Shown: positions 5,564 to 42,801 of the stretch, piece after piece
How the letters are laid out: every line of letters begins with the position of its first letter
Position numbering within the stretch: the stretch's first letter is position 1
Source of the DNA: an uncultured Bacilli bacterium
GTDB taxonomy: Bacteria > Bacillota_I > Bacilli_A > RF39 > UBA660
NCBI GenBank assembly: GCA_934097015.1
Contig: CAKONF010000001.1
Span: forward strand, 65,082-129,081
Length of the DNA: 64,000 nucleotides
Direction of reading: 5' to 3'
Program-made: the position numbers and the translations under genes
Notes under the pieces: model-generated
What the model saw: the letters and a program-made list of their open reading frames with translations, nothing else
What the model was told of the DNA's origin: nothing
Databases searched by the model: none

Positions 5564-6469
5564 ATGAAAAAGAAATTATATGAAGATTTTGAAAGTACTG
5601 GTAAAACAAATGCAATAAAGAAAAGAGTTAGTGAGTTAATAAATAAAAATAAGAGTATGGTAATACTTGATACTAAGAAAGAATATGAAGAATTATTTAA
5701 AAATACTAATTATGAAATAATTAAATTAGATATAAGTGATTTAAATAGCGATATTGCTTATAATCCTTTATATGATGCAGAAAAATTATTTAAAAATGGA
5801 AATATAGATGATTCAATAGAAAAGATAGTAAATTTTGGAAAACTATTAATTCATACTGAAGATAGTGTTGATCCTTATTGGGATAATGCTGCTAGAAGTA
5901 TGTTTACTGGAATATGTTTATATGTTTTAAATAATAATAGAAGTTTAAATTTAAAAGAAATAATAAAAGTAAGTATAGATGAAATGGATGAGATGACTAA
6001 ATATATTAATAATTTAGATGTTTTGAATTATATAAATATAATTACATCAAGTGTAATAAATGCACCTGTAGAAACTAAGGGTGGAATAATGTCTGTTTTA
6101 AAACAATATTTAGGACATTTTGCACATAGACCTAATTTATTAGATAAAATTAGTGTTGATAGAGGTATTGAATTAAAGAGTAAAAATCAAGTTATATTAT
6201 TAACTAATTTTAGTCAAAAGACTATATTTAATATTATTATAGAGAATGCTTTAATTAATATTATAAATGAAATGATTGATAGTAAAGAAGAATATGTAGT
6301 TGTGCTAGATAACTATGATAGTATAATGAATACTGAAGAATTTACTAAGTTATTTAAATCTTATTTATCTGATAACATAGAATGTATTGTTGGTGTAAGA
6401 GATAATAGTTTAGTTAAACCTTTAGATGAGTTTTTAGTTATGTACAGAAAAGGTAAATTAACTGAATAA
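5564..6469 (+). CDS. Soluble, degenerate TraG/VirD4-type coupling-protein-like ATPase domain protein
   Basis: 'VILDTKKEY...DIAYNPLYDAEKL...DPYWDNAARSMFTGICLYVL' resembles the T4CP core (vvDpKGE...NPL...DPFW..aA..Ll). The Walker A is degenerate ('STGKT'), a Walker-B-like 'VVVLDNYD' is present, and there are no N-terminal TM helices. Confidence 0.4.
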   Translation: MKKKLYEDFESTGKTNAIKKRVSELINKNKSMVILDTKKEYEELFKNTNYEIIKLDISDLNSDIAYNPLYDAEKLFKNGNIDDSIEKIVNFGKLLIHTEDSVDPYWDNAARSMFTGICLYVLNNNRSLNLKEIIKVSIDEMDEMTKYINNLDVLNYINIITSSVINAPVETKGGIMSVLKQYLGHFAHRPNLLDKISVDRGIELKSKNQVILLTNFSQKTIFNIIIENALINIINEMIDSKEEYVVVLDNYDSIMNTEEFTKLFKSYLSDNIECIVGVRDNSLVKPLDEFLVMYRKGKLTE

Positions 6470-13951: not shown

Positions 13952-16513
13952 CTAAGCCTTTTTTTGTTGTTTTTTATTGATTACTAAATAAGTTATAGTA
14001 ATTATTAATGTTGTTATACTTATAGATATACCTATATCTAAATTATTAGGAATATATTTTAATTCTATGTTGTTTTCTCCTTTTTTTAAATCAAATCCTA
14101 ATAGACTATCATTAATTTTATAAGTTTTTATTTCTTTATTATTTGAATATACTTTCCATCCTTTATCGTATGGTATAGATGTATATATTGAAGTATCATT
14201 TTGAAGTGTAATATTTCCTTTTATATTATTTTCTTTGAAATTAGTAATGTTTATTCTATTTGAATTTAGTATGTTATAGGCTTCTATAAATTTATTATTT
14301 TCTATAGTATAAATATCTATTTCTTCATTTAAGTATGTTTTATAAGATACATATATTTCTACATTGTTATCATTAGATGTTGTATTTATTATATATTCTT
14401 CATCATATGAATTACATTCTTTAAATGTTCTATTTAGTTTTATTTGTATATCATTTATATTGATATTATTTTTATAATATATTTTATCATTTATTATAAT
14501 ATAATTAATTTGTGTATTGTTTGAATATAGATATATATTATCAAATTCATTTATATAATTATATTTAACTATTGTTTCTTTTTTATTTTGTGTAATTATT
14601 TCTCTGTTGTCAAGTGTTAATCTATGAAATACATTTTCTATATTTGTTCCATAATTTATAAAATTATTTTGATATTCTATTGGATTTATAAAATTATTAG
14701 TCCATTTTTTTATTGATTTATTTACTCCAAACATTAATCCTGTTGTGTAATTAAATTTATATGTTAAAGTATTATTTTTGTTTAATTCTAAATTATATCT
14801 TTTATTATCATTGTTTTTTCCAATCGTATATTTTATATCAAACATTAAATCGTATACTGGTGTATTTTGTTTATAATAATAACTATTGATTCTATTACCT
14901 GGTTGTCCTAAATCATTATTTAATTCTGCTAGACTATTATATGCCATTGATGTAAATGTACTTTGTCCGTAATAGTTATACCATGCTCCATCATTAAGAG
15001 TTAGTATTGTGTTTTTTTCAGTTCTATAAAACAATTCATTATCTTTTTCTTTGATTTCACTTATACTTTCATGTACGTTATTGTATGTTGAATAAAATTC
15101 ATCAATGTATTGTAAAATATCCCAATTATGATTTACTGATATTACACATTCGATAGAGCATACAATTATAAATAAAAGTGTACTTAAATTTTTAAATCTT
15201 GGATAGAAATGATATAGGGTATAGATTAAGAAATAAGTTGATATTAATAAATAATTTATTGTTATCATATTTGATGTTATATTGTTATATTTTGTTAAGT
15301 ATACAAATGTTATGAATAATAGACAAATAACATATGTTATTAAAATTTTTGTAAAAGATATTTCTTTTATGTTTTTTAATGAATAAGCACATGTTAATAT
15401 AAGTATGAAACTATATATAAATGAATATCTATATGGCAAATCATTTGGTACATGGAATGCGTGCCATATATAATCTAAAGGAGCAACATAAAATGAAGTT
15501 AATAAGAATATAAGAATTAATGTGTATACTATTTTTCTTTTAATATTGATTTTTTTATTAAGTATGAATAATAAATATAAGCCTATAGATAGTATTCCGC
15601 ATGATACGTTTGGAGCATTTGATATGTCTGATGCAAATACTGTTTTTGTTATTCCAGTTAAATGATTTTTAAAAAAGTTAATTATAGTGAATGCATAATA
15701 TTGTTCTGTTGGAATAGTTCCCATAGTTGCATTTGTACTTTTTAAAGATTCATACATTGGTATTAGTTCAAATGCTAATAGTAAACCAGCAATTAAAGAA
15801 CATATTGCAAATTTTAAACATTTTTTTGATATTTTTTTAACGTTAAATTTTTTTGTTTTAATTATTAAATATGATAAGAAATATATACATGAATAAATAC
15901 ATATCATATATCCTATAAAATAATTTGTGAATAATATTAATATTAAAGATAGTGTATATAAAACTCCATTATCTTTATTAATTATATTTTCTATACCTAA
16001 CGTTATTAAAGGAAGAATGTACATTCCATCTAACCACATTATATTCCAATAGTATGCTGTAAAATATGCTGAGTATCCGTAAAGAAGTGATATTCCTATC
16101 ATATATAATTTGTTTGTATTAAATTTTTTATGTATATAATATGAGCATGTGATACAAGATAATATACTTTTTAAACCTATTATTATTGAATAAGACATTA
16201 TAATATTTCTTCTTTTGAATAAAAACATTATTATATTTAGTGGTGATGATAAGTAATTAAAAAAGTTTCTGAAATACGGTAGTCCTAATCCTGTATTAAA
16301 ACTATATATAATGTTTGTACCTTTTTTTATTCTGTCGTATAGTTCTGCTAGCATGGGTCCGTATTGATGAAAAAAATCTATTGTTAGAAGTGAATTTCTA
16401 CCAAATGGTGCAACATCTTGTAGTATATATATTGTAGATATTATTGATACTCCTAATATAAATACTACTATTAAATATCCATATTTTTTTAAAAAGTTTT
16501 TCATAAGTACCAC
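13952..16513 (-). CDS. YfhO-family polytopic membrane protein (putative glycosyltransferase)
   Basis: 853 aa with many TM segments. The N-terminal 'DVAPFGRNSLLTIDFFHQYGPML' matches the YfhO N-terminal signature. It has a large C-terminal extracytoplasmic domain. Confidence 0.6.
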   Translation of the reverse strand: MVLMKNFLKKYGYLIVVFILGVSIISTIYILQDVAPFGRNSLLTIDFFHQYGPMLAELYDRIKKGTNIIYSFNTGLGLPYFRNFFNYLSSPLNIIMFLFKRRNIIMSYSIIIGLKSILSCITCSYYIHKKFNTNKLYMIGISLLYGYSAYFTAYYWNIMWLDGMYILPLITLGIENIINKDNGVLYTLSLILILFTNYFIGYMICIYSCIYFLSYLIIKTKKFNVKKISKKCLKFAICSLIAGLLLAFELIPMYESLKSTNATMGTIPTEQYYAFTIINFFKNHLTGITKTVFASDISNAPNVSCGILSIGLYLLFILNKKINIKRKIVYTLILIFLLTSFYVAPLDYIWHAFHVPNDLPYRYSFIYSFILILTCAYSLKNIKEISFTKILITYVICLLFITFVYLTKYNNITSNMITINYLLISTYFLIYTLYHFYPRFKNLSTLLFIIVCSIECVISVNHNWDILQYIDEFYSTYNNVHESISEIKEKDNELFYRTEKNTILTLNDGAWYNYYGQSTFTSMAYNSLAELNNDLGQPGNRINSYYYKQNTPVYDLMFDIKYTIGKNNDNKRYNLELNKNNTLTYKFNYTTGLMFGVNKSIKKWTNNFINPIEYQNNFINYGTNIENVFHRLTLDNREIITQNKKETIVKYNYINEFDNIYLYSNNTQINYIIINDKIYYKNNININDIQIKLNRTFKECNSYDEEYIINTTSNDNNVEIYVSYKTYLNEEIDIYTIENNKFIEAYNILNSNRINITNFKENNIKGNITLQNDTSIYTSIPYDKGWKVYSNNKEIKTYKINDSLLGFDLKKGENNIELKYIPNNLDIGISISITTLIITITYLVINKKQQKKA

Positions 16514-16718
16514 CTAATTAAAATTATATAATATAGGTTATTTTTATTCAATTTTTTATTTGTCTTTTTTTGTTTTATTTTGATAAGTTTTTAGAAGTTT
16601 TGTCGAATGACTTTATTTTATTATTAGATTGTATTAGTATAACTAATCGAACGTCTGGGTTGATGTCTACCTTACGAACTGAATTATAAAAGAGTAAAAG
16701 TAGTAAGGTGGTGATATT

Positions 16719-16793
16719 ATGTTCAAAAATTTAGAAAAATTTATGAATAGAATCATTGTTATTTTAATATTACTCTTCTTGGATAAAGAATAA
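16719..16793 (+). CDS. 24-aa hydrophobic peptide MFKNLEKFMNRIIVILILLFLDKE (candidate type I toxin)
   Basis: ATG start with SD 'aaggtggtg'. It has a charged N-terminus, a 10-13-residue aliphatic core and an acidic tail. Confidence 0.6.
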   Translation: MFKNLEKFMNRIIVILILLFLDKE

Positions 16794-16802
16794 TTAAATT
16801 AA

Positions 16803-16885
16803 AATAAAAACATCCGCCACTCAGTTAGGACGGATGCCTGCAACCAAGGTAGACATCTAACCTACAGGGGGTAGACGTTCTACTT
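16803..16885 (-). ncRNA. Predicted antisense sRNA of module B
   Basis: Minus-strand -35 TTGACA (plus-strand tgtcaa, 16915-16920) and -10 TATTAT (plus-strand ataata, 16892-16897) with a 17-nt spacer. The terminator hairpin (plus-strand 16811-16836) is followed on the minus strand by a T-run. Confidence 0.5.
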
Positions 16886-17098
16886 GATTAAATAATAGCA
16901 TTTGATATAGTGATTGTCAAATGTTTTTTTTATGTAGATTTTACTAAAAATGTAGAAATATGATAAGTTTTTGGAAGTTTTGTCGAAAATCTTTAATTTA
17001 TTATTAGATTGTATTAGTATAACAAATCGAACGTCTGGGTTGATGTCTACCTTACTAACTGAATTATTAGAGAGTAAAAGTAGTAAGGTGGTGATAAT

Positions 17099-17173
17099 GT
17101 GTTCAAAAATTTAGAAAAATTTATGAATAGAATCATTGTTATTTTAATATTACTCTTCTTAGATAAAGAATAA
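17099..17173 (+). CDS. 24-aa peptide (V/M)FKNLEKFMNRIIVILILLFLDKE with a GTG start
   Basis: Identical to the copy B peptide except for the start codon. An upstream out-of-frame ATG gives MCSKI* only. Confidence 0.45.
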   Translation: MFKNLEKFMNRIIVILILLFLDKE

Positions 17174-17182
17174 TTAAATTAA

Positions 17183-17267
17183 AATAAAAACATCCGCCAC
17201 TCAGTTAGGACGGATGTCTTCCAACACAAAGGTAGACATCTAACCTACAGGGGTAGACGTTCTACTT
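17183..17267 (-). ncRNA. Predicted antisense sRNA of module C
   Basis: Minus-strand TTGACA (plus-strand 17298-17303) with a TATTAT-like -10. The hairpin 17191-17216 is followed on the minus strand by a T-run. Confidence 0.45.
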
Positions 17268-17322
17268 TATTAAATAATAACATTTATTATATATAGTTGT
17301 CAATTGATAATGGAGGGTTTTG

Positions 17323-17654
17323 ATGAAAAATAAATTGCAGATAATAAATAAAATGTATCATGATGAAAGTATTAGAACTTATATTGTATTAGAAGATAAA
17401 AAGTATTATATAAGTCTATATGATGTTGTATTAAAATTAACTAATTATAAAAATATACAATCTTTTATAGTACGTTTAAAAAAAAATTATTATTAGAACA
17501 AAATAAAGTTATTTATAATTTTAAAACTTTTAATTTAGTAAAAAAGGGAGAGGGTAGGTATAAAAGAACTGAAATGATAGATTTTGATAGTTTAATTATT
17601 CTATTAGATTATATTCCTGTTAGAAATAAAGAATATGTTAAAGATTTTTTATAG
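17323..17654 (+). pseudogene. Bro-N/KilA-N-like small ORF split by a frameshift at an A9 tract
   Basis: ORF 17323-17496 (MKNKLQIINKMYHDESIRTYIVLEDKKYYISLYDVVLKLTNYKNIQSFIVRLKKNYY*) continues in the -1 frame after A9 (17478-17486) as LLEQNKVIYNFKTFNLVKKGEGRYKRTEMIDFDSLIILLDYIPVRNKEYVKDFL*. RBS is 'ggaggg'. Confidence 0.4.
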
Positions 17655-17817
17655 ATTAAATAACTCTATTTTAAACGTGTTAATTTAATTGATAAGGGTT
17701 TAATATATAACGATACAAATAAATTCATTAAAAATATTTATTTAGATGGTAGAATATTTGTACTTGTAAAACGTTAACATTTATTATAAAATTATTTTAG
17801 AGTAGAAGGTGTTTCTA

Positions 17818-18069
17818 GTGGATAATAAAGTTAATGTTGATTTGATAGTTCCTAGTATTGGAGAGAGATATAATATATTTATTCCAGTAAATAAAACTAT
17901 TGGGGAAGTTATTGTTATTCTTAATAATACAATAAATAATATGACAGGTTATTTTCCTATAGTAAATAATTTATCTATTTTGGATGTTGTTAGTAATAAA
18001 ATATATGGAAGTAATGTAGATGTAAAAAGTGCTGGTATAAAAAATGGTGCTATACTTGCATTAATATAG
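17818..18069 (+). CDS. esaB: YukD/EsaB-like ubiquitin-fold T7SS protein
   Basis: 83 aa starting 'MDNKVNVDLIVPSIGERYNIFIPVNKTIGEVI'. It lies immediately upstream of essC. The start is taken at GTG 17818 with SD 'gaaggtg'. Confidence 0.7.
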   Translation: MDNKVNVDLIVPSIGERYNIFIPVNKTIGEVIVILNNTINNMTGYFPIVNNLSILDVVSNKIYGSNVDVKSAGIKNGAILALI

Positions 18070-18076
18070 GTGTAAT

Positions 18077-21000
18077 ATGAGGTTAGTATTAGAAAGTAAA
18101 GACCAATTAACTATTACTAAATTACCTAACACTGTATCCGGTAATTATTGGATAATTGATGATAATAATAAAAATCTACTTAATGTTAGTGTAGAAAATG
18201 ATAGTTGGGTATTGAATAGCAATACAGAGATAAAAATTAGCAACAACATTAATAATGATAAATTAAGTAATATTAATTATTTAGAAAAAGTTATTTTAGA
18301 AGAAAATAAATATTATTATATTACTAATATAATGACTAAAGAAAATTATATATTATATACTTTACCTAGTTATGAATATTATGAAAACTTTGTTATAGAT
18401 TATAATCAAAACAATAATATAATTATTGGTAATGGTAAAAATAGTGATATAGGAATTAATAATAGTTTGTTTAATGATAAAGATATTAGTATAGAATATG
18501 ATAAAAAAAGCAACAATATATTATTTAAAAACTTAAATGAAAAAAGTAATAGTTTTATAAATTATAGAAAATGTAATAGTTGTTATTTAAGTAATGGAGA
18601 TATTATATTTAAAAATGGTATATTTATTTATTATTTTGGTAGTTTATTGTTAGTTAGTAATAATAAACATGATTTAGTATTTAATTCTTTAAGAGTTAAT
18701 AAAAGATTAATTAAAGAAAATGAAAAAAAGGATTACAGTAATTTAATAGATAAAGATGTTAAAGTATTTGATAAAAATAGTATGTTTCAAAGACCTCCAA
18801 GGTTTAAAAGGAAGATAGAACATAAAGAATTTAATATTGATAGTCCTACACAAAAAGAAAATGACGAAGAAACTCCATTAATATTTACAATAGCTCCTAT
18901 GATGACTATGGGAATGATGAGTTTAGTAACTGGAATGAGTAGTTTAGGAAAAGTATTAAATGGTGAAAGTACAGTAAAACAAGAATTAGGTTCACTTTTA
19001 ATGTGTGGATGTATGTTGCTTTCTATGATAGTGTTTCCGTTAATTCAAAAGTTTTATGATAAAATGAAAAAAGCGCAAAAAGAAAGAAAACGAAGAAGAA
19101 AATATAAAAAGTATATTAGTAGTAAACACGATGAAATATTTAAAGAAATAAATTTTCAAAAACAAGTTATGATAGAAGATAATTTACCTATAGATAAAGT
19201 AAGAGATATAATTTTATCTAGAAGTAGAAATTTATGGGATAGAAAATTAGAACATGAAGATTTTTTAAATTTAAGACTTGGTATTGGAAATACTAAACCC
19301 GATATAGAAATTAAATATCCTGAAAGCCATTTTACTTTAGAAGAAGATGATTTAAAAGATATAATAGATGATTTAGTGAATGAAAGTAAAGATATTACTG
19401 ATGTCCCTATTACACTTAATTTTAGAACTAATAATAAGACTGGTGTAATAGGTGATAATAATAATTTATATAATATGTTAGATAATTTAATGCTACAGAT
19501 AATGGCTTATCATGGATATGATATGTTAAGAATTTGTATATTGACTAATAATAATGTTTATTGGGATAAGTATAGAAACTTACCTTATTTGTGGAATAAT
19601 GATAAAAGTATAAGATATTATGCTAGTAATAAAGAAGATATTAATAAAGTATGTAGTTATTTAATGGAAGAATATAATTATAGAAAAGAAGTATATGAAG
19701 ATGGTACTGTATTTAATCCATATTATTTAATTATTACTGATGATATTAATAGTGTTAAGAATAATGTATTTGTTAGTGAAATATTAAAGAATCGTAGTAA
19801 TTTGGGTTATAGTTTGCTTATGTGCGTTAATAAATTAGATTTATTGCCTAATGAATGTAATATGTTTGTTAATTTAAGTAATGAAGTATGTGGTATATTT
19901 ACTAATCAAATGACTATGGATAATCAAATTGCTTTTAAGAAAGATGTTGTTAATTTTTCTTTAAGAAATGCAATTGCTAATATTAGTAATATTCCTATGG
20001 ATATAAATAATGGTAAATTTGTTTTGCCTAAAAAATATGGTTTCTTAGAAATGTATGATGTTGGAAATGTGAATCAACTTAATATTGTTAATCGTTGGAA
20101 GAATAATGATGTTATCAATAGTTTGAGTTGTCCTGTTGGTATTGATGAACAGGGTGAATTATTCAATATTGATTTACATGAAAAGGCTCATGGACCTCAT
20201 GGATTAGTTGCAGGTATGACTGGTAGTGGTAAGTCTGAATGGATTATTACTTATATATTATCTATGGCAATTAATTATAGTCCTGAAGAAGTTCAATTTG
20301 TACTTATAGATTATAAGGGTGGAGGACTTGCGTTAACATTTGATAATAGAGAAAATAATATTAAATTGCCACATGTAGTTGGTACTATTACGAACTTAGA
20401 TATTGTTGAGATTAAAAGAAGTTTAGCCAGTATAGAGAGTGAACTTAAAAGACGTCAAGCAATGTTTAAGAAAGCTCGTGAAATACTAAATGAAAGTAGT
20501 ATGGATATATATAAATATCAAGATTATTATAGACAAGGTAAACTTAGTGATCCAATGAGTCATTTATTTATAATAAGTGATGAGTTTGCTGAATTAAAAG
20601 TACAACAACCTGAGTTTATGGATAAACTTATTAGTACAGCAAGAATTGGACGTAGTTTAGGAGTGCATTTGATACTTGCTACTCAGAAACCGAGTGGGGT
20701 TGTAGATGACCAAATATGGTCTAACTCTAAATTTAGAGTATGTTTAAAAGTACAAGATAAGAGTGATTCAAATGATATGATTAAATGTCCTGATGCTGCT
20801 ATGATAAAAGAAACTGGTAGATTTTTCTTACAAGTTGGATATAATGAATTATTTATGAAAGGACAAAGTGCTTATGCTGGAATGCCATATTATGAAAGTG
20901 ATAAAAAAATTACCGTTGTTAATTCTAGTATAGATTTTGTTGATGAAATAGGTAGTATTATAAAACGCGGTGATGTTAAAAAGAATAATACTCAATATGT

Positions 21001-22672
21001 TCATAAAGGTGAAGAGTTGCCAAATGTTTTAAATTATATTATAGATACTTTTAAAAATGAAAATTTAAATGTTAAACCATTATGGTTAAGTAGTATACCT
21101 AAAGTAATATATGTAGATAAATTAAAAGAAAAATATAATTATGTAAAAGAAGATTATGTTTTAAATCCTATTATTGGAGAATATGATTATCCTTCTAAAC
21201 AAACACAAGGTTTATTAACATTAGAATTAAGTAAAGAAGGAAATACAATAATATATGGTTCTAGTGGAAGTGGTAAAGAAAATTTAATTACGACAATACT
21301 TTATTCATTGATTAGCAATTACAGTGTATATGAAGTAAATAGTTATATATTAGATTTTGGGAGTGAAATATTAAATAATTTTGAAGCTGCACCACATGTC
21401 GGAGATATTATACATAGTGGTGATGATGAGAAAATAGAAAACTTATTTAAATTTATAAATAATGAGATTAAATTTAGACGTAAAAAGTTTATGAATAGCA
21501 ATGGAAATTATTTAGATTATGTAAAAAATAGTGAAGAAAAAATACCAAATATTGTTGTTATAATAAATTTATTTGAAGTGTTTAGTGATTTATATGATAA
21601 ATATATTGATAATATAGTTGAACTAACTAGAGATTCCTCTAAATATGGTATATTTTTCATTTTAACTAGTGCTAGTAGCACTGGAATTAGAACTAAGATA
21701 ACACAAAATTTTAAAAATTTGATTACTTTACAATTGAATGATGAAATGGATTATAGGAATGTATTGGGAAATACTAACGGTGTTGTTCCTAGCAAATACG
21801 TTGGTAGGGGATTAGTCAAGTTGGATAAAGTTGTAGAGTTTCAAACTGCATATTGTTATCCTAAAGAAAATTTATATGATAATGTAAAAATGCTATGTGT
21901 TAAATTATTTATGGATATGAAGATGAAAGCAAGAGCGATACCTGTATTACCTAATGTTGTAGAATTTAAAGATATTAATAAAAATGAAATAAACATAAAT
22001 AACATACCTATTGGTATAGTTAAAAAAACTTTAGATATTGCTAGTATTAATTTGAAAGATAACATTAGTTATTTAATGAGTAGTAGAAATTTTGATGATA
22101 TGTTAACTTTTATTGATAAATTATTATTTATATTAAATAGTTCTAGTAGTTTTAATACATTTGTATTTGATAGTAAGTTTGTTTATGAGGAAAATAAATT
22201 TAATAATATAACATATTTGAATAATGGATATAGTGATGTGTTAAAACAAATAAGTGAGTATGCAGATAACGTAGATGATGTATTAAAACAAAATAGTAAT
22301 AATAGGAAAAGTATTAGTAATGTAAAAGAAGTTTTAGTTGTATTATTAGGATTAGATAAGTTTGTTAAGTCTTTAAATGACGATGATAAAAAACTATTTG
22401 AAAATATTATTAATAAAACTAAAGATAGTATAAAAATACATTTTGTGTTTGTTGATGGTAGTAATAGTTTAAAGAAGAACGAATATGAATCTTGGTATAA
22501 AGATATAGTTGATTCTAGCAGTGGTTTATGGATTGGTGATGGTTTTGCAGAACAATATAGTATTAAACCTACAAAGATTCAACAATCGTATTATGAATTA
22601 ATTGGTAATAGGTTTGGATATATAGTTTCTAATGGAAACGTAGATTATATTAAAATTATAGAGAAAGAGTAA
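18077..22672 (+). CDS. essC: EssC, the T7SS FtsK/SpoIIIE-family ATPase
   Basis: 1531 aa with an N-terminal FHA-like region and two TM helices near residues 265-325. It has multiple P-loop domains ('GLVAGMTGSGKSE', 'IIYGSSGSGKEN') with Walker B 'FIISDEF'. Confidence 0.9.
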   Translation: MRLVLESKDQLTITKLPNTVSGNYWIIDDNNKNLLNVSVENDSWVLNSNTEIKISNNINNDKLSNINYLEKVILEENKYYYITNIMTKENYILYTLPSYEYYENFVIDYNQNNNIIIGNGKNSDIGINNSLFNDKDISIEYDKKSNNILFKNLNEKSNSFINYRKCNSCYLSNGDIIFKNGIFIYYFGSLLLVSNNKHDLVFNSLRVNKRLIKENEKKDYSNLIDKDVKVFDKNSMFQRPPRFKRKIEHKEFNIDSPTQKENDEETPLIFTIAPMMTMGMMSLVTGMSSLGKVLNGESTVKQELGSLLMCGCMLLSMIVFPLIQKFYDKMKKAQKERKRRRKYKKYISSKHDEIFKEINFQKQVMIEDNLPIDKVRDIILSRSRNLWDRKLEHEDFLNLRLGIGNTKPDIEIKYPESHFTLEEDDLKDIIDDLVNESKDITDVPITLNFRTNNKTGVIGDNNNLYNMLDNLMLQIMAYHGYDMLRICILTNNNVYWDKYRNLPYLWNNDKSIRYYASNKEDINKVCSYLMEEYNYRKEVYEDGTVFNPYYLIITDDINSVKNNVFVSEILKNRSNLGYSLLMCVNKLDLLPNECNMFVNLSNEVCGIFTNQMTMDNQIAFKKDVVNFSLRNAIANISNIPMDINNGKFVLPKKYGFLEMYDVGNVNQLNIVNRWKNNDVINSLSCPVGIDEQGELFNIDLHEKAHGPHGLVAGMTGSGKSEWIITYILSMAINYSPEEVQFVLIDYKGGGLALTFDNRENNIKLPHVVGTITNLDIVEIKRSLASIESELKRRQAMFKKAREILNESSMDIYKYQDYYRQGKLSDPMSHLFIISDEFAELKVQQPEFMDKLISTARIGRSLGVHLILATQKPSGVVDDQIWSNSKFRVCLKVQDKSDSNDMIKCPDAAMIKETGRFFLQVGYNELFMKGQSAYAGMPYYESDKKITVVNSSIDFVDEIGSIIKRGDVKKNNTQYVHKGEELPNVLNYIIDTFKNENLNVKPLWLSSIPKVIYVDKLKEKYNYVKEDYVLNPIIGEYDYPSKQTQGLLTLELSKEGNTIIYGSSGSGKENLITTILYSLISNYSVYEVNSYILDFGSEILNNFEAAPHVGDIIHSGDDEKIENLFKFINNEIKFRRKKFMNSNGNYLDYVKNSEEKIPNIVVIINLFEVFSDLYDKYIDNIVELTRDSSKYGIFFILTSASSTGIRTKITQNFKNLITLQLNDEMDYRNVLGNTNGVVPSKYVGRGLVKLDKVVEFQTAYCYPKENLYDNVKMLCVKLFMDMKMKARAIPVLPNVVEFKDINKNEININNIPIGIVKKTLDIASINLKDNISYLMSSRNFDDMLTFIDKLLFILNSSSSFNTFVFDSKFVYEENKFNNITYLNNGYSDVLKQISEYADNVDDVLKQNSNNRKSISNVKEVLVVLLGLDKFVKSLNDDDKKLFENIINKTKDSIKIHFVFVDGSNSLKKNEYESWYKDIVDSSSGLWIGDGFAEQYSIKPTKIQQSYYELIGNRFGYIVSNGNVDYIKIIEKE

Positions 22673-22874: not shown

Positions 22875-22884
22875 GGGGGGGGGG
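22875..22884 (+). repeat. G10 homopolymer tract in the 5' leader of the WXG gene
   Basis: 'cgtcGGGGGGGGGGttatat'. A G10 run is extremely improbable in a roughly 22% GC genome. It sits about 50 nt upstream of the start codon. Confidence 0.9.
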
Positions 22885-22933: not shown

Positions 22934-23542
22934 ATGAATATTAATGTTAGAGATTTGGATTTAGGTTATAGTCAATGTGAGGAATTAAATACTTTATCTA
23001 AGACTAGTGGAACTAATTTAATTAGTAATTTGTCAACTGATATAAACAATTTAAAGGCTCACTGGAAAGGCACTGATGCTACAGCACATATAAACAATTT
23101 AATTAAAGTTTATGATGCTTTGGTTGCCTTGGTGACTGATGCTAAGGTTATTACTTGCAATTCAGGTAGTGCAATAAGCACTATTCAAGAAGTTAGAAGA
23201 AGTAATGGTGGTTCTGGAAATATTGGAGGTCCTTTAGATGGCAATGCGCCTGATGCAAGTAGTTTACCTACTATTGAATCAACAAGCGAATACTTTTGTG
23301 ATCCATCAGCTAGAATAGATTATACGTTATTAGAACAAATTTGTTCTGATTATTCTAGCTTTATTAATAATTTTAGAAGTCAAAAAGATGCTTTAATGTC
23401 AAATTGGACTGCAGGTGCCAACAGAGAAAATGCTGTTAAAGTATTTGATGAATTTGATTCGAATTCTGAGACATATAATAAATATTTAACAGATGCTAAA
23501 GAAAATTTAGGAATTGCTGTAAGTAATTTATCACAATTATAA
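22934..23542 (+). CDS. Tandem (double) WXG100-like T7SS substrate
   Basis: 202 aa from the ATG with SD 'ggagaagggag'. The first half has 'LKAHWKGTDATAH', a W-x-G motif in a helix-turn-helix. The second half has 'LMSNWTAGANRENA', a W-x-x-G variant. A Gly/Ser/Pro linker (RRSNGGSGNIGGPLDGNAPDASS) separates the halves. Confidence 0.6.
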   Translation: MNINVRDLDLGYSQCEELNTLSKTSGTNLISNLSTDINNLKAHWKGTDATAHINNLIKVYDALVALVTDAKVITCNSGSAISTIQEVRRSNGGSGNIGGPLDGNAPDASSLPTIESTSEYFCDPSARIDYTLLEQICSDYSSFINNFRSQKDALMSNWTAGANRENAVKVFDEFDSNSETYNKYLTDAKENLGIAVSNLSQL

Positions 23543-23593: not shown

Positions 23594-23890
23594 ATGAATC
23601 AAAAATATGAAAAGTACTTACCAATTGGTAGTGTTGTTTTATTGAAAAATGCAAAAAAAAGAATAATGATTACTGGATTTTGTATAAAAAGTAAGGAATC
23701 TGATTTAGATAAAGTTTTTGATTATATTGGCTGTCTATATCCAGAAGGAATAATAGATTCTGAAAAAAATTTGTTATTTGATCATAATCAAATTGAAACT
23801 ATTTATGCAATAGGATATAGCGATGATGAAGAAAGAGAGTTCAAAAAGAAATTACAAGAAGTTTTAAAAGAGGAAAATAATAATGTCTAA
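23594..23890 (+). CDS. DUF4176-family protein (LXG-associated)
   Basis: 'YLPIGSVVLLKNAKKRIMITGF...FDYIGCLYPEGI' matches the DUF4176 pattern (LP.GSVV.LK.......G......DY.GC.YPEG) from memory. It overlaps the next ORF by 8 nt. Confidence 0.55.
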   Translation: MNQKYEKYLPIGSVVLLKNAKKRIMITGFCIKSKESDLDKVFDYIGCLYPEGIIDSEKNLLFDHNQIETIYAIGYSDDEEREFKKKLQEVLKEENNNV

Positions 23891-24281
23891 ATCTTCTAAC
23901 AATAAAAATACTGAATCTCAATATTGGCGTCAAAAAGAAAGAGAATATCGTGAATTAAAAAAATCATATGAGAAATACAGAGACAAATTATCTTCTTTAA
24001 AAGAAGTTTTGTCTCCCTTAAGTATACATTTAGTTAATTCAAAAAAGTATTTTGAAGATGGTGGATATATTGAAGATAATGGTGAAACATTAGATAGAGG
24101 AAAATTATTAGAAATGAAGAATAGTTTAGAAAAGATTATTGAAAGATTATCAAGTGTTATTTCTGACACAAATTCTAAAATATCTTCTTTACAAGTATTA
24201 ATGAACGATTGTAATAAAAAAGCAAATCAAGCTGTTATAAACGCTTCTAGCAATTGTTATTTTGCTGTTAAACCTAAGTAA
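23883..24281 (+). CDS. Small all-helical protein, candidate Lap-type LXG-targeting partner
   Basis: 132 aa, coiled-coil rich and translationally coupled. Its position between DUF4176 and the LXG toxin is typical of DUF3130/DUF3958/DUF5082-like partners. Confidence 0.4.
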   Translation: MSKSSNNKNTESQYWRQKEREYRELKKSYEKYRDKLSSLKEVLSPLSIHLVNSKKYFEDGGYIEDNGETLDRGKLLEMKNSLEKIIERLSSVISDTNSKISSLQVLMNDCNKKANQAVINASSNCYFAVKPK

Positions 24282-26575: not shown

Positions 26576-26707
26576 ATGGAAAAGAAAAAGATTATAATTA
26601 ATGGAATTGAAGAAGAAATATATGTTGTTAGTGATAAAGAAAAGGAAGATAATTTGGATTTAATAAATTTAGAAGATACTGTTGATTTATCTGAGGTAAT
26701 TAATCAT
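26576..26707 (+). CDS. 43-aa acidic small protein overlapping the start of the next gene
   Basis: MEKKKIIINGIEEEIYVVSDKEKEDNLDLINLEDTVDLSEVINHE. Its stop overlaps the ATG at 26706 (ATGAATGA). Confidence 0.35.
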
Positions 26708-28034
26708 GAATGAGTTTTTAGAAAGAATAAAGATAATTGCTAAATATAATCCCGGTTTATTAAATGATGATTTTTATGATATAGTTTATACTGAATTAAT
26801 AGGTTTTAATTTAGGACATAATCAAGAAAAATTTAAAAATATAAGTAATATGTTTAGTAAATGGATTGATAGAAATAATGTTAATGAAAGATTACGTACT
26901 TTTATAGATAATAGATATCCTTATTTTTGTCAATTTGTTAACCGTGGTGCTAAACCTATAAATAAAGATGCAATTAAATTATATATTCCACTTGATGAAG
27001 AGCATTTATATGAGGGTGTTAATAAATTATTTACTTTTATTACTAATATGGGTATTGAACATAATTCTAAAGTTGGTAGTGAAATTAGAAACGATAATGT
27101 TGTTATTAGAGTTAGTAATATTAAGGATGCTGAAACAATTATTAATTATGTTAAAAATGATAAATATTTAAGTGAAGGTTTACTTAATGTTAATCCATTT
27201 ACAATTAATTTAAATGGTGTAGGAATTGCTATGGATGGTATGCGTTCATATAATATAGAATTATCTAAATCTATTGCTAATTTTACTAAAATATTAAGTG
27301 AAAAAAATAGATTGGAAGATTTAAATGTAGATACTTTTAATGAATATTTAAATAATGTGAGAAGTAATGATAGAGATTTAAATATGATTAATGATATTCA
27401 AAAAAGAGTGACTGCAGGTCAAAGTTTTGATATGAGTTATGTTAAAGATATATTTTCTAAATATAATGGAAATGTTAATAATATAAATAAAGAAGGTATT
27501 TTAAAAGAGGCAATAATTGAAACATATAATAAATATCAAAGTATAGATCATGTTATTCATGCAATTGCTAGGTTTAGATATAATGGTGATGCTTGTGGAT
27601 TTACTAGAAATAATGGAGCAAGAGCTAGATTAGAAATGGGTTTAAGTTTAGAAGATGTTAATAATATTTTAAATAATTATCCGTATTATGGTGATAATAA
27701 GATTGAAGCATATATTAATAATTGTATAGGTTTAAATAATACAAAAGATGATAAATATCAATATTTAGTAAATGCTTACAAAGATACATATAATAAATAT
27801 GGTGATAGACAAGCTGATCTTGCTTTAAGAAAATATATTCTTAATAAAGAAGTAAAATACATTACTAATAGTAATGGCGCTAGAACTAATTTAGAAATGT
27901 ATTTAAAAGATAGTGATATAATGCAAACTTTAAAAAATGGAATGAATATAGATAGTTATTGTTCTTTAGAAGATATATGTGAAACTTTTATAAATGAAAT
28001 GCGACAATTGAATATGAGTCGTGGTAGTTATTAA
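26706..28034 (+). CDS. Hypothetical 442-aa protein with internal 'NGAR(A/T)xLEM' repeats, associated with the T7SS island
   Basis: 'GFTRNNGARARLEMGLSLEDVNNIL' and 'YITNSNGARTNLEMYLKDSDIMQTL' are repeated about 95 aa apart. There is no signal peptide or TM. Confidence 0.5.
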   Translation: MNEFLERIKIIAKYNPGLLNDDFYDIVYTELIGFNLGHNQEKFKNISNMFSKWIDRNNVNERLRTFIDNRYPYFCQFVNRGAKPINKDAIKLYIPLDEEHLYEGVNKLFTFITNMGIEHNSKVGSEIRNDNVVIRVSNIKDAETIINYVKNDKYLSEGLLNVNPFTINLNGVGIAMDGMRSYNIELSKSIANFTKILSEKNRLEDLNVDTFNEYLNNVRSNDRDLNMINDIQKRVTAGQSFDMSYVKDIFSKYNGNVNNINKEGILKEAIIETYNKYQSIDHVIHAIARFRYNGDACGFTRNNGARARLEMGLSLEDVNNILNNYPYYGDNKIEAYINNCIGLNNTKDDKYQYLVNAYKDTYNKYGDRQADLALRKYILNKEVKYITNSNGARTNLEMYLKDSDIMQTLKNGMNIDSYCSLEDICETFINEMRQLNMSRGSY

Positions 28035-28162: not shown

Positions 28163-28191
28163 ATAGGGCAATTACTTAGGAGGGTTTGGTT

Positions 28192-29421
28192 ATGGATAAT
28201 AAGTATTTAGTAATTAATGGTGGTAGTAGTTCATTAAAGTTTTCTTTATATGATAATAATAAAGAAGAAATAGTTAATGGATATATACAAAAAATTGGTT
28301 TAGAAGATAGTTTTTACACATTAAAATATGATGGTAAAAAAGTTGAAAAAAATTGTAAAATTATGAATCATATTGATGCTTGTAATGTTATGATTAATGA
28401 GTTGTTAGATAATGATTTTATTTTTGATATTAATCAAATTGCTGGTGTAGGTCATAGAGTTTTACATGGTGCTGAATTTTATAATGAATCTGTTATAATA
28501 GATGATGAAGTAATAAACAATTTAAAGTCTTTAGTAGATTTAGGTGGACTTCATTTACCTGGGGAAATATCTGTTATAGAATGTATGAAAAATATTCTTC
28601 CTGATGTTAAACAAGTTGCTGTATTTGATACTGCATTTCATCAAACTATGAAGAATGATAGATATATTTATCCAATTAAATATGAATATTATGAAAAATA
28701 TGGCGTACGTAAATATGGTTTTCATGGTACTAGCTATAATTATATTAATAATGTCATGAAAGATAAATTGGGTGTTAATAATCCGAATTTAATAGTTTGT
28801 CACATAGGTAGCGGAGCAAGCATGTGTGCAATAAAAAATGGTGAGTGCGTAGATACAACTATGGGTCTTACTCCATTAGATGGATTAATGATGGGAACCC
28901 GTTCTGGTTCAATTGATCCTGCTATTATAGATTATTTAGTTAATAAAACAGGTAAAAATGTTAGTACTATTACTGATGAATTAAATAAAGAATCTGGTAT
29001 GGTTGGATTGTGTGGTAAGAGTGATTTAAGAGATGTTGATATTTTAATTAATAATGGTGATAAAAAAGCTATACTTGCTATGAAAATTTATATTAATTCA
29101 ATTATTAAATATATTGCAGAATATTATTTCTTATTAAAGGGAGATGTTGATGCGATTGTATTTACTGCTGGTGTTGGAGAAAATAATAGTTATGTTAGAC
29201 GTGAAGTTGTTAATTATATTTCTGATGTTATTGGCAGTAAATTAGATGATGATATGAATAATCAAATTGCTGGTTTTAAAGAAATAAAAGAAGGTATAAT
29301 AACAACTAGTGATTCTAAATGTCCAATATATGTTGTTCCAACAGATGAAGAAAGTATGATATTAACTGATACTATTAGATTATGTGAAACTAATAAAAAA
29401 TTAGTAAAAAAAAGAAATTAA
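28192..29421 (+). CDS. ackA: Acetate kinase
   Basis: 'KYLVINGGSSSLKFSLYD' and 'VGHRVLHGAEFYNESVIIDDEV' are the acetate/propionate kinase signatures. Confidence 0.9.
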   Translation: MDNKYLVINGGSSSLKFSLYDNNKEEIVNGYIQKIGLEDSFYTLKYDGKKVEKNCKIMNHIDACNVMINELLDNDFIFDINQIAGVGHRVLHGAEFYNESVIIDDEVINNLKSLVDLGGLHLPGEISVIECMKNILPDVKQVAVFDTAFHQTMKNDRYIYPIKYEYYEKYGVRKYGFHGTSYNYINNVMKDKLGVNNPNLIVCHIGSGASMCAIKNGECVDTTMGLTPLDGLMMGTRSGSIDPAIIDYLVNKTGKNVSTITDELNKESGMVGLCGKSDLRDVDILINNGDKKAILAMKIYINSIIKYIAEYYFLLKGDVDAIVFTAGVGENNSYVRREVVNYISDVIGSKLDDDMNNQIAGFKEIKEGIITTSDSKCPIYVVPTDEESMILTDTIRLCETNKKLVKKRN

Positions 29422-29446: not shown

Positions 29447-30166
29447 ATGGTAATTAATAATAATTTTGTAGATAAATATGGTCATAAATATGATGGTGTA
29501 ATAGAAAAAGCTTTAACAAAAGATGAATTAAACAATATTGGTATATTTGTAAATCAAACAAAAAGGGAAGAAAATATATTCATAAAAACTAATGGAGTCT
29601 ATATATATCAAGATAAAGATAATTCTAATATTGGCTATAGGATATATGATGAATATGCTGATTATGGTTTTAATGGTTATGGAGATGCTAAGCTTATTTC
29701 TAATTTTAACAAAATAAGAGATAATGTAAAATTGACTGATTTACCTATAGGTGTTGTTAGTTCTGATGGAAATGTAGTTGGTCAGATAATACCTTATTAT
29801 CCTAATTGTGAAAGCGTTTATGATTATGCAAAAAGAACAAAAAATATTAATGTAATCAAATATTATAAAAAAATGATTAATATATTAAAAGAATTATATG
29901 ATAATGGTATGATATATGTAGATACTCATGCTAAAAATTATTTGATAGTTAAAAATGGTATTAAATTAATAGATTTTGATAGTAGCTATATTGATTTTTC
30001 AGATACTAAGTTTAAATATGATAGTATGATTTATACATTTGTTAGAATGCTTAAAATATTAAATGAGTTGCTTGGAATTGATTTTAATATAAACAATAAT
30101 TTTGTTCGTGATTTACAAGATATAGAAGAAGTAGTTGAAGAAATGGAGAAAAAGCTAGTTAGATAG
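29447..30166 (+). CDS. Protein-kinase-like fold protein (APH/Kdo-kinase/RIO-like)
   Basis: 'MIYVDTHAKNYLIVKNGIKLIDFDSS' resembles the catalytic loop (HxDxxxxN) plus the DFG-like 'DFD'. Confidence 0.4.
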   Translation: MVINNNFVDKYGHKYDGVIEKALTKDELNNIGIFVNQTKREENIFIKTNGVYIYQDKDNSNIGYRIYDEYADYGFNGYGDAKLISNFNKIRDNVKLTDLPIGVVSSDGNVVGQIIPYYPNCESVYDYAKRTKNINVIKYYKKMINILKELYDNGMIYVDTHAKNYLIVKNGIKLIDFDSSYIDFSDTKFKYDSMIYTFVRMLKILNELLGIDFNINNNFVRDLQDIEEVVEEMEKKLVR

Positions 30167-36524: not shown

Positions 36525-39500
36525 ATGATAAAGGATGATGATTTAATAAAAATTATAAGTGAATTTAAAAGTGGAAATATTAATTATTTTATTAATAATT
36601 ATTCTTTTTCTGATAGAAAAATGTTTGTTGATAATATGTATCAATATAATGATGTTTTAGAAAATAATTTTGCGAAAGAACAAGATGTAATTATTTTTTT
36701 ATCATCAATATTTTCATATGAAGAGGCACGCAAAATATTAGTAGAAAATGAAATTAATTTTATTAATAGTGTTAATAGTATCTATATCTCATTATTTACT
36801 TTGCCGGATGAAGAAAAAAAGAAATATTTACATTATTTTAAGTATGATACTGAATTATTTAAAACTTTTGTAAATTCTTTTGCTGATGAGAATGTTTATA
36901 ATGAAAATGTTGTTAAAGGTGATATAAATTTAGAAAATATAAATAAATTAAATGATACTGAAAAAATAGACTTAATTAGACATTATTCAAAATATACTAA
37001 TATTGCAAAAATAATTAGTTCTATGAATGTTGTAAATATAATTACATACTTAAAAAATAATAAAATAGACAATAGAAGTTCTGAATATCTTTTAAAAATT
37101 ATAGATTTTGAAGTTTTAAAAAAAATATTATTTGATAGAGATATTTATGTGGAACAAAATTTTTTAGAATATATTATCAACAAACAAAGCTATTTACAAA
37201 AGATAGAATTATTGAAAAATAATAATATTTTAGAAAGACTAGATTCTTTATATTATTGTAAACTTTTATCTAATTTAAAAATTAATGATATTATACAAAT
37301 ATTAAAAAATATTGATTATAAAAAGCATTTATCAAAATATGATTTCCGATCTATTTTTAATAATAATGATATATATAAGGATAATAATGAGGATGAAGAA
37401 GATATTTCTTTTTTAATAGAGTTATATCAGGAAGGATATATTGATTTTAATACTTTTAAATATTTTCCTGATGATATTAAAGTTTTATGTTTTAACAATG
37501 ATAAATTATTGGATTCAGATAAAAAGATAATTTTATCTTTTATAGAAAATGATTTGATAAAAACTGATTTATATTTTTCTTTTAAAGGGAATAGATTAGC
37601 TAATTTTGATATTCAAGATCAGTATAATATTTTAAAAACATTAAATGATGATAATAAATTAAAACTTATTAAAATAGATAATTTAGATAATGATCTAAAA
37701 ATAAAATTAACAATGTCTTTAAGCGAAGATAATTTAAAATTTGATTATTTAGATTATATAGAACGTGAATATATGATTTCATCTATATTTAATGAGACTG
37801 ATGTATTAAACATTTTAAAAACATTAAATGATGAAAATAAAAGAAAATATATTCTTCAAAATAAATATGGTTTAAGTAAGACATTTATTAGTGATTTAAT
37901 AAGTTCTTTGCAATCAAGTGATATTAATGATAAGTTTATTATTGATAATTTTGAAATGTTTTTAAATCCAGATATAATGACAATGTCTGGAGTATATGTT
38001 TATTATAAAAATATTTTATTTCCTATAAAAGATGTTTCTGTAAAAATCAAATTATTAGAAATATTAAAGGATAAATTAGATGAACAATTTTTCATATCTT
38101 TAATTACAAATATTAAATATGATTATTTAGATGATTATAAAATAAAATTGATAAAAGAATCTTCATTTGAACTTACAGAATCTTATGTTGAATTATTAAA
38201 ATCTTTAAACAATGTATATAGGGGTATTGAAATTTTAGAAAATAATTCTATAGAAAATTCTAATATTATATATTTGAAATTGTTATATGAATTAAATAGT
38301 AAATATGATGAGTTAAAAATAAATTTTTTAAATAATAATATAGAATTATACAAAGATTCTCCTGATATAGTTGTTAGAGAACTTATTCAGAAAATTATTG
38401 ATAGCATTAATGTAGATAATGATATTAACAAGTTAAAATTGAAAATTAAATTTGCAATCAATTACAAGTTTAATAGTGATTTTATATATGATTTAATTAT
38501 ACACAATGAAGAGTTCATTGATAATAATTATGTATTTGATGATTTAATATTATATTGTTCTAAATGTTATAACTGTGACTATGAACGTTTATTAAATTTA
38601 ATTTCTAAATATGGAAATGTTGTTTTTAGATTTTTAAATAATAAAAATATAATTAGTTTTTTGAATTTAGATCAAGATAATTATAATAAAATAAAAAATA
38701 TGTTTGATTTTCAAGAAATGATAAAGACTAATGACCAACATATAGATAATGTATTAAGTGCTTTATTACAAAAAAAGTTTACATTAGATAATAAAGATAT
38801 GTTAGATATTTTTATTAGTATTAAAAATGCTATTATATCTAATAATATAGACGAAGTGTTAGTTATTTTAAATGATATTAGTAGTTATTTGTGTAATTGT
38901 TTATTAAAAAACATAAATTTAGATGATGATAATTATATTTCTAATATTCTTAGAGAATGTGCTTATAATGATATTAATGCTTTTATAAAAGACTTATATG
39001 ATAAGAATAAAATAGATAGTAATTTAAAAATAATAAATAAATTTACTAATAAATATATATTAGAAAAAAGAAATGATTTTGTTAAAAATAATTTTCATAG
39101 TTATAAAGGTAAATTATTGTTAGATGGTACATATGAAAAAAAATCTTTTATTAGATGTTTTATAGAACAAAAATCACAGTCTTTTATTATAGAACATTTA
39201 AAAAAACTAGATTTGAATAAGTTAACTTTAACTGAGAAAAAATTATTAGATAATGAAAAAATATTGTTTGATATAATTTCTTTAAAAAAGGGATTATATG
39301 TTGAAAATAAAGATAATATTTTAAAATTTATTAAAACATTTAATAGTGTTATGGATAAATATTATTTAAGTCATGATAAATTTTACATTAGTATTCAAGG
39401 GTGTAAATTATTATATAATATTCCTTATTCAAAAGAAGATATTTTATCTGTATTAAGTGGATTAGATATTAATTTGTTGAAAAATAAATTACTTAATGAT

Positions 39501-41838: not shown

Positions 41839-42801
41839 ATGTATATCAATTCCTTTATAACAGAGTTATCTAAGAAAATAGATACTGTTGATGAGCAGTT
41901 AAAAGATTTTCAAAGTAAGATGGATAAAATAAATGATGTAAAAAATATGCTTACATTGAAAACATTAAAGGATATAGATGATTTAAAAGGGGAGGATTTG
42001 GCCTTACTTGATAAAGATGACTTCATGAAAATATTAGAAGTATTTAATTTTGATGAAAAAGAAGAAAAGATGAAAATTTTCTTTAATGCTAGTGTTAGTA
42101 TTAAAGTTAATCAAAAGTTGGTTAGTGATGGAGAAATTGATGTTGATAATAAAGAACAAGTTTCTACATATGTTAATTGGCTTAATGAACAAATAAAATA
42201 TATTAAAGAATATATAAAAGATTTTAATAATAATAATAAAGAATATTATAATAGTTTAAAAATAAGTGATACTTTATATAAAAAATATATAAGTTATTTT
42301 AAAAATGATAAATTAATTAAGCCTATATATGATATAGAAGAATTTAATGAAGTTCTTAAAAAGAGTGGAATTATAACTAGTGAAAAGTGGCAAATTTTAG
42401 AATATATTGGTGAAAAAAATATAGATTTTGCTAGAAAAAGTGAAGCTGATAAAAAGAATGACATTATAGAGTATAGTGATGAAGAAATATTATCATTTGT
42501 TGAAAGCATATTAATTAGAGAGAAAAATTTAATTAACAATATTACTGATGAAATACTAAAAACATCTTTAGAAATAATGGATTATGATGATGAAAAATTA
42601 GAAAAAATGAATTTAACTAATGATATGTTGGTTAAATATCAAAAAGTTCCTATATTAGATACAATGAATAAGATGTATAAGGAAACTAAAATGATGTTAA
42701 AGGAAGATAAAGATAGTGATGCTATTAAGATAGAGAAGAATTTAAAAGATTTACTTGAATTAGTAGATAGTTACGACGTTATTAAAAAAATTGAAAGTTA
42801 G
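41839..42801 (+). CDS. Hypothetical protein (first gene of a 4-gene operon upstream of pcrA)
   Basis: RBS 'atgggaggctagatattATG'. Acidic and helical. Confidence 0.5.
   Translation: MYINSFITELSKKIDTVDEQLKDFQSKMDKINDVKNMLTLKTLKDIDDLKGEDLALLDKDDFMKILEVFNFDEKEEKMKIFFNASVSIKVNQKLVSDGEIDVDNKEQVSTYVNWLNEQIKYIKEYIKDFNNNNKEYYNSLKISDTLYKKYISYFKNDKLIKPIYDIEEFNEVLKKSGIITSEKWQILEYIGEKNIDFARKSEADKKNDIIEYSDEEILSFVESILIREKNLINNITDEILKTSLEIMDYDDEKLEKMNLTNDMLVKYQKVPILDTMNKMYKETKMMLKEDKDSDAIKIEKNLKDLLELVDSYDVIKKIES

Follow-up and report, generated by a model that had tools for sequence, protein, structure and literature searches.

We describe a T7SS (type VII secretion system) locus in a 64,000-nucleotide stretch of contig CAKONF010000001.1 (assembly GCA_934097015.1, positions 65,082 to 129,081 of the forward strand) from an uncultured Bacilli bacterium, hereafter called the window. 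The locus probably encodes a reduced, kinase-independent T7SS that lies outside both subtype T7SSb and the published a–j scheme, and whose dedicated machinery consists of the ATPase EssC (TsxC), an 83-amino-acid (aa) ubiquitin-fold protein (TsxB) and a tandem WXG100 protein as candidate TsxA. An important question in T7SS biology is which parts form the channel and which merely scaffold or regulate, and this locus could be the simplest T7SS seen so far. The subtypes a–j were defined from RefSeq genomes by Garrett, Higginson & Palmer (2024), who found TsxA (WXG100), TsxB (YukD-like) and TsxC (EccC/EssC) to be nearly universal and the accessory set to be subtype-specific (PMC11217815); a search of the literature for a minimal T7SS subtype or a tandem WXG100 protein gave nothing beyond that study. 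A first-pass annotation of the window had read the locus as a minimal T7SSb without EsaA, EssA and EssB, with the missing partners either encoded elsewhere or absent from a reduced or novel architecture. The latter alternative is favored here, because a two-gene core recurs in 13 loci of unrelated context with no other conserved neighbor, while the premise that the system is a T7SSb did not hold.

EssC is a membrane-bound EccC/EssC-type FtsK/SpoIIIE ATPase with multiple P-loop domains, scoring 994 bits against the NCBIfam model TIGR03928 (cut-off 778) and matching Pfam FtsK_SpoIIIE at 3.5e-43. Its architecture comprises two degenerate FHA domains (~aa 1-235), a pair of transmembrane (TM) helices (residues ~266-288 and ~302-325), a DUF domain and the ATPase domains, with no additional fused domain, in agreement with the earlier description of a normal-sized and unfused protein. 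Relatives annotated with PF00498 and PF16697 have FHA domains to which the first 235 residues align. In D1, both the Walker A motif (GMTGSGKS, residues 713-720) and the Walker B motif (LFIISDE, residues 830-836) are intact, and D2 has a P-loop at residues 1061-1068 (GSSGSGKE). When compared to a related locus with 85% EssC identity (L006), the ratio of non-synonymous to synonymous substitution rates (dN/dS) was 0.15 for EssC and 0.13 for TsxB, so that both genes are under purifying selection and neither is a pseudogene, which contradicts the earlier proviso that EssC might be a pseudogenised remnant. The exact EssC protein of the window is recorded on human-gut (Hadza) metagenome contigs, and its 90%-identity cluster has 27 members, the majority of them full length. 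Some genomes may carry more than one such ATPase: divergent EssC homologues were found in pairs whose longest contigs are recorded with equal length (P0015/P0058, 74,409 bp; P0020/P0063, 36,348 bp; the two pairs being ~66-68% and 45-47% identical to the window EssC), which suggests two paralogous copies of the window type.

The 83-aa gene starts at 17818 (86 aa if translation starts at 17809), and sequence searches alone gave nothing, with no YukD match or any other match in Pfam and NCBIfam and no meaningful result from a profile search of PDB sequences. The fold assignment therefore comes from structure prediction: an AlphaFold2 model, made from an alignment of database homologues, is a beta-grasp with a predicted local distance difference test (pLDDT) score of 89.6, and its top Foldseek matches in the PDB are ubiquitin-like proteins, among them mycobacterial EccD with its ubiquitin-like domain (7np7_D2, 4kv2). 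This supports the YukD/EsaB-like protein that had been proposed at the start of the locus, the Pfam YukD model itself being silent, and provides the free ubiquitin-like EsaB/YukD protein that is expected of a T7SSb. The protein ends in LALI, with no Gly-Gly, and its exact sequence is present in a public protein collection. By phmmer it is homologous to the EssC-adjacent 83-aa genes of two T7SSe/j-type loci (L013, 2e-7; L015, 3e-6), and its gene adjoins EssC in 21 of the 22 loci of our survey as well as on three contigs with a truncated EssC (L010, L021, L023).

The survey covered neighborhoods of full-length EssC relatives, the window included, and is small, given that EssC scans of the genome and metagenome contig collections yielded 7 and 8 loci, respectively. 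All-against-all clustering of their open reading frames (ORFs) showed that broad sharing is limited to EssC and the ~85-aa gene. With phmmer, a Ser/Thr kinase and/or a PP2C phosphatase was found in eight loci (L013, L015, L017-L020, L022, L024; kinase-linked loci) and neither was found in 13 (the window, L002-L004, L006-L009, L012, L014, L016, L025, L026; minimal loci), nine of which have full flanks of +/-10 kb. The remaining locus (L011), from Coriobacteriales, is an 8.7-kb contig on which neither kinase nor PP2C was detected and which has no ubiquitin-like gene, a gene that T7SSd lacks as well. When the minimal loci are mapped gene by gene, conservation is confined to EssC and TsxB, in contexts that are mutually unrelated and without any positionally conserved membrane protein. 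A neighbor-joining tree of 622 columns (TM2-DUF-D1), rooted on a partial sequence of Bacillus subtilis YukB, recovered the 13 minimal loci as one clade (bootstrap 99/100) and the kinase-linked loci as another (100/100), with the Coriobacteriales sequence beside the latter. Over the same columns, the window EssC is 50-88% identical to members of the minimal clade, 41-48% to the kinase-linked clade and 36% to YukB. Judged from these sequences, the minimal clade appears to be the sister group of the kinase-regulated T7SSd/e/j-type systems. In one of its members (L014 1-20700, 43% identical), the EssC-TsxB-WXG module lies amid genes for a TraC-like protein, a VirB4-like ATPase, an NlpC/P60 hydrolase and a type IV secretion system coupling protein, and the minimal module may thus travel on integrative conjugative elements.

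A second line of evidence comes from the phosphothreonine-binding motifs of the FHA domains (GR, SxxH and NG), which are ~100% conserved in the kinase-bearing subtypes d, e and j and lost in b and f (Table S1, PMC11217815). The GR, xxH and NG signatures are all kept in each of the eight kinase-linked EssCs, whereas none of the 13 minimal EssCs retains all three motifs; the window EssC has GN in place of GR at the aligned positions, and both SxxH and NG are absent. Deeper members of the minimal clade retain some of them (GR and SxxH in L025; SxxH alone in L003, L009, L014 and L026), which suggests, as far as sequence comparison goes, that the clade descended from a phospho-regulated ancestor. 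The pattern also served as a prediction: a homologue with intact motifs (P0092) was found in a complete T7SSe-type cluster, and two with degraded motifs (P0087, P0099) lie in clusters without kinase, PP2C or FHA protein. Loss of the motifs thus appears to track loss of the kinase module and to be an internally consistent marker of it.

The third component is a 202-aa protein, whose gene has a good ribosome-binding site (GGAGAAGGGAG) 5' of the ATG at 22934. Its AlphaFold2 model (pLDDT 94.6; predicted template modelling score 0.89) consists of four long helices (8-43, 47-90, 126-157 and 164-201) that form two hairpins, with W44-x-G46 and W158-x-x-G161 located at the two turns and invariant across 33 homologues. 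The locus therefore encodes, together with its ATPase, a protein of the WXG100 family with two WXG-type helical hairpins. The Pfam WXG100 model matches its C-terminal half at E 7e-6 and 26.7 bits, just under the cut-off of 27.3, while homologues carry PF06013, and in one from the minimal clade (L026) WXG100 matches two stretches with 46 bits. A Foldseek search of the PDB with the AlphaFold2 model gave nothing more specific than generic four-helix bundles (ferritin, Dps), an uninformative result because WXG100 dimers are two-chain entries there. All 49 database homologues are ~202-205 aa long, and since almost all of the 206 clusters from an exhaustive profile search fall between 200 and 210 aa, the protein belongs to a small, distinct tandem double-WXG100 family and is not a one-off fusion. 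We take it to be the single-chain counterpart of the WXG100 pair found in T7SSe-type clusters.

The genes 3' of the tandem WXG gene are arranged as is typical of polymorphic-toxin cargo modules, with candidate roles suggested by their positions, in keeping with the earlier remark that EssC leads straight into substrate genes. The DUF4176 protein occupies the same slot in L002 and L007, lies farther downstream in L008 and is located upstream of EssC in L026, and L002 and L007 have homologues of the 132-aa protein in the corresponding place, the protein itself giving only weak coiled-coil-type Pfam matches. No domain and no LXG match was found for the 610-aa candidate effector in Pfam or NCBIfam; its central region is homologous (E 7e-30) to an 894-aa protein in the equivalent slot of L007, and relatives carry large variable proteins there, e.g. 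1949 aa in L002. The 133-aa candidate immunity or accessory protein has one weakly hydrophobic segment and no significant family in Pfam, and the 442-aa protein has no match in Pfam or NCBIfam and no homologue in any related locus. Approximately 50 bp 5' of the tandem-WXG gene lies a run of ten G residues, with a homologous G11 tract in L006 (13859-13869), which may serve to switch the cargo operon by slipped-strand phase variation.

Known accessory partners were sought across ~74 kb of this genome, i.e. the window, of which every ORF of at least 100 aa was scanned with Pfam, and the 10 kb upstream of it, which hold sporulation genes and unrelated genes. No member of the YukC/EssB, EssA or EsaA families was found in either, bearing out the absence of EsaA, EssA and EssB from the neighborhood, nor did Pfam or NCBIfam reveal EsaA/YueB or EssA/YueC in the window, and the Pfam annotation on record for six other minimal loci (L002-L004, L014, L025, L026) likewise has neither. 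A hydropathy scan near the locus revealed no EssB-like or EsaA-like membrane protein and no ORF of ~400 aa with a single mid-protein TM helix. Among the same window ORFs there was no Pfam match to PP2C, FHA or DUF6382 domains; TadZ-type matches were absent from the window, and no beta-propeller or Tad cluster adjoins the locus. Using TsxD, TsxF, TsxJ, TsxI and neighboring proteins of three kinase-linked loci (L013, L015, L024) as phmmer queries yielded nothing in the minimal loci or in the window, and a TsxI fragment of L024 and its two small downstream proteins likewise had no homologue in the window.

Two ORFs were considered as candidates for missing components and rejected. A soluble 239-aa kinase-like protein (29447-30166, between ackA and typA), in which the position of the catalytic-loop Asp reads HAKN and a DFD motif is present, was rejected as an EssB or TsxD remnant, given that its Pkinase score of 22 bits is below the cut-off, that it has no TM helix, that ackA lies between it and the locus, and that no homologue occurs near EssC in relatives. 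A cytosolic 1429-aa ORF (36525-40814) was rejected as an EsaA or TsxI candidate, with no TM segment, signal peptide or Pfam domain.

Taken together, we propose with some reserve, as a possibility that falls short of being probable, that EssC and the ubiquitin-fold protein, with a single-chain double-WXG100 substrate or activator, form a self-sufficient minimal T7SS, which has shed the kinase/phosphatase/FHA circuit and the other membrane subunits and is widespread in uncultured low-GC gut Bacilli, occasionally on conjugative elements. By analogy to B. subtilis, where the FHA and DUF domains of YukB have YukD lodged between them and the model makes YukB a central hexameric channel surrounded by YukC dimers (PMC12637312), a hexamer of EssC would form the channel with its 12 TM helices and use the ATPase domains as motor, and TsxB would clamp the N-terminal FHA domains to the DUF domain. 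It should be noted that there is no complete T7SSb structure and that the B. subtilis core complex did not form a hexamer in vitro (PMC12637312). We further propose that, because the phosphothreonine-binding residues of the FHA domains are lost, EssC would assemble independently of a Ser/Thr kinase, a phosphatase and an FHA-adaptor protein. The tandem WXG protein may mimic an EsxA/EsxB dimer, activate EssC and be exported with the effector complex, and the likely use of such a system would be interbacterial competition in the gut.

In each experimentally studied T7SS (a, b), a number of further membrane proteins are indispensable, and this is one of several points that weigh against a reduced system of this kind. 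The organism apparently has a peptidoglycan wall and sporulates (FemAB, YfhO, GerQ), yet no EsaA- or TsxI-like wall-spanning component is evident; known or novel partners may be unlinked and lie in other parts of the genome, and membrane proteins that are small (<45 aa) or very divergent may have escaped the searches. There is no WXG gene in the available flank of several minimal loci (L016, L010/L021). The phylogenetic placement comes from a distance tree of 22 loci with only a partial YukB and without the ATPases of T7SSc, f, g, h and i, and secretion by the system is a prediction from sequence.

The main alternative, which we regard as less likely but worth serious attention, is that the locus represents the linked portion of a larger apparatus, with additional subunits, membrane or regulatory, known or novel, encoded elsewhere in the genome and acting with this EssC in trans. 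That every T7SSa and T7SSb studied by experiment requires extra membrane proteins speaks for it, as does the warning by Garrett et al. that neighborhood analysis can miss components (PMC11217815), and our own inspection was limited to the ~74 kb and to +/-10 kb around the relatives, some of which (L025) have a large Ig-like surface protein near EssC. However, components are clustered in every described subtype, no accessory gene is linked in any of the 13 minimal loci in spite of their diverse contexts, one of them within a conjugative element, and the decay of the FHA motifs argues that the kinase circuit was lost and not relocated.

Far less likely is a canonical firmicute T7SSb from which EssB, EsaA and EssA were deleted or moved, the label given in the first-pass annotation. 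The FHA domains, the EsaB-like gene and the DUF4176 cargo are consistent with it, and EssC passes the NCBI model T7_EssCb_Firm; however, the NCBI name is also given to two T7SSe/j-type proteins (P0101, P0107), and thus the model does not discriminate subtypes. YukB (PDB 9qks) is the most distant sequence and the outgroup to the whole set, aligning only to EssC residues 298-941 with 36% identity and 390 bits (as compared to 621-642 bits for three T7SSe/j-type EssCs and 567 bits for the Coriobacteriales EssC over that region), and it gave no alignment to the N-terminal FHA region; judged against this single partial T7SSb sequence, the window ATPase is not of the TsbC (EssC/YukB) lineage. The nearest organism-named homologues with accessory genes in their locus are P0101 and P0107 (38-39% identity over full length) and P0092 (39%). 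Clusters of the nearest accessory-bearing relatives hold EssC with an 83-aa gene, a pair of WXG100 genes, and genes for a DUF6382-FHA protein, a PP2C phosphatase and a Ser/Thr kinase (which has TPR repeats in a Clostridium cluster; the L024 cluster has a 1915-aa Ig-like protein), and never YukC, EssA or EsaA, which is the T7SSe/j pattern. The locus is therefore not a T7SSb shorn of EssB, EsaA and EssA: since its EssC is closest to T7SSe/j-type clusters, the partners to expect are TsxD, F, J, H, I and K, which were likewise not found in the searched DNA. Slightly less likely still is a decaying, non-functional remnant of a once-complete T7SS, for although accessory genes were not found, the FHA motifs are degraded and the N-terminal region of EssC evolves faster than the whole (dN/dS 0.28 vs 0.15), the ORFs are intact and full length across a clade of ~40-97% overall EssC identity, EssC and TsxB are under purifying selection with catalytic motifs intact, and cargo turns over beside the core as expected of an active polymorphic-toxin locus.

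The reduced, kinase-independent system favored here is embedded in chromosomal surroundings of ~23% G+C, with a strong positive GC skew and housekeeping genes all along the window. The gene order runs from yfhO (minus strand) through a 1.3-kb stretch of non-coding sequence and small ORFs to the 83-aa gene, EssC, the cargo-type genes and ackA (Table 1), the flanking yfhO and ackA genes having been described as unrelated in the first-pass annotation; a gap of 240 bp separates EssC from the ORF series downstream.

Table 1. Positions of the T7SS locus and its flanking genes in the window
Feature	Position	Strand	Basis
yfhO	13952-16513	-	Pfam YfhO, 507 bits
TsxB/EsaB-like ubiquitin-fold protein, 83 aa	17818-18069	+	AlphaFold2 beta-grasp, Foldseek, phmmer
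EssC/TsxC, FtsK-SpoIIIE-type T7SS ATPase, 1531 aa	18077-22672	+	TIGR03928, Pfam FtsK_SpoIIIE
G10 homopolymer	22875-22884	+	sole G/C run of at least 8 in the window
Tandem double-WXG100 protein, 202 aa, candidate TsxA	22934-23542	+	AlphaFold2 model, WXG motifs, WXG100 match
DUF4176 protein, 98 aa, T7SS cargo-associated small partner	23594-23890	+	Pfam PF13780, 98 bits
Helical small protein, 132 aa, candidate Lap-like targeting partner	23883-24281	+	role from position
Candidate secreted effector, 610 aa	24290-26122	+	role from position; part-homologue in same L007 slot
Candidate immunity/accessory protein, 133 aa	26157-26558	+	position directly 3' of the 610-aa gene
442-aa protein, last gene 5' of ackA, locus membership uncertain	26706-28034	+	no family match
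ackA	28186-29421		

The TA repeats noted earlier 5' of EsaB are real and represent a 380-bp tandem duplication (copies at 16581-16911 and 16961-17293; 94% identical over 266 nt). Each copy has a plus-strand ORF for a hydrophobic 24-aa peptide (MFKNLEKFMNRIIVILILLFLDKE) and, on the minus strand, an 11/12 sigma-70-like promoter with an extended -10 that is directed back across this ORF, a layout that resembles a type I toxin-antitoxin pair. Over these repeats, a promoter/terminator scan performed no better than on shuffled sequence, and Rfam gave nothing credible. The Bro-N-like pseudogene that had been suggested between the repeats and TsxB (17320-17660) was not supported: Pfam gave no match there (E up to 0.5), and blastx revealed no resemblance to a true Bro-N protein encoded on a related contig. 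On a public contig, a 57-aa gene is annotated at this place.

Elsewhere in the window, a type IV secretion coupling protein is represented by a fragment of 301 aa (5564-6469; TrwB_AAD_bind / T4SS-DNA_transf), which lies beside a MerR regulator and is probably the remnant of a conjugative element. The 1429-aa ORF and a small minus-strand ORF after it are followed by four plus-strand ORFs of 320, 304, 224 and 101 aa (41839-44672), which have no meaningful Pfam match. A further gene run (53514-59435) contains genes for an ORF6N-domain protein, an ABC ATPase and a pseudouridine synthase, together with a type IV pilin-like protein that carries an N-terminal methylation motif and a camelysin-like (Peptidase_M73) protein of 559 aa.

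If the minimal reading is true, a lineage that has kept just the ATPase, a clamp of ubiquitin-like fold and a WXG protein would be a far simpler target for reconstitution and cryo-electron microscopy, and would speak for EccC/EssC being the translocon by itself. The single-chain double-WXG100 family would be a natural 'fused EsxA-EsxB', usable to study how WXG dimers activate the ATPase, and the RefSeq-based T7SSa–j scheme would be extended into uncultured gut Bacilli.

Among the described subtypes, T7SSg is also small, being essentially A1, A2, B, C and one further protein (PMC11217815), but its ATPase has no FHA domains and it comes with the DUF5050 beta-propeller TsgL and adjacent Tad genes, unlike the window locus. 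T7SSf likewise has few predicted components, no kinase and FHA domains that have lost GR and SxxH (PMC11217815); it differs in its PP2C (TsfF), its DUF6382-FHA membrane protein (TsfJ) and its AAA+/TadZ-like TsfV, none of which was found in the window, and in TsfC, which keeps the NG motif (88%) that is lost in the clade of the window EssC. Systems of the T7SSb subtype (Ess of S. aureus; Yuk/Yue of B. subtilis) share with the window FHA domains without phosphothreonine-binding residues, a free EsaB/YukD-like protein, cargo partners of the DUF4176 type and a toxin function presumed to be antibacterial, whereas EssB/YukC, EsaA/YueB and EssA/YueC were not found in the window, and the 100-aa WXG homodimer of T7SSb is replaced by a tandem fusion. 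With regards to T7SSe/j (PMC11217815), the window differs in that no TsxD kinase, TsxF PP2C or TsxJ DUF6382-FHA protein was found in it, nor a large Ig-like TsxI or the small TM proteins TsxH/K (very small or divergent proteins could escape such searches), that the three FHA motifs are lost, that TsxB is located upstream of EssC and not downstream, that the two WXG100 units are fused in one 202-aa chain, and that its EssC belongs to a separate clade. The similarities to T7SSe/j nonetheless include the core itself, namely an FHA-bearing TsxC with an adjacent and homologous 83-aa TsxB, a WXG content of two WXG100 units, and polymorphic cargo downstream.

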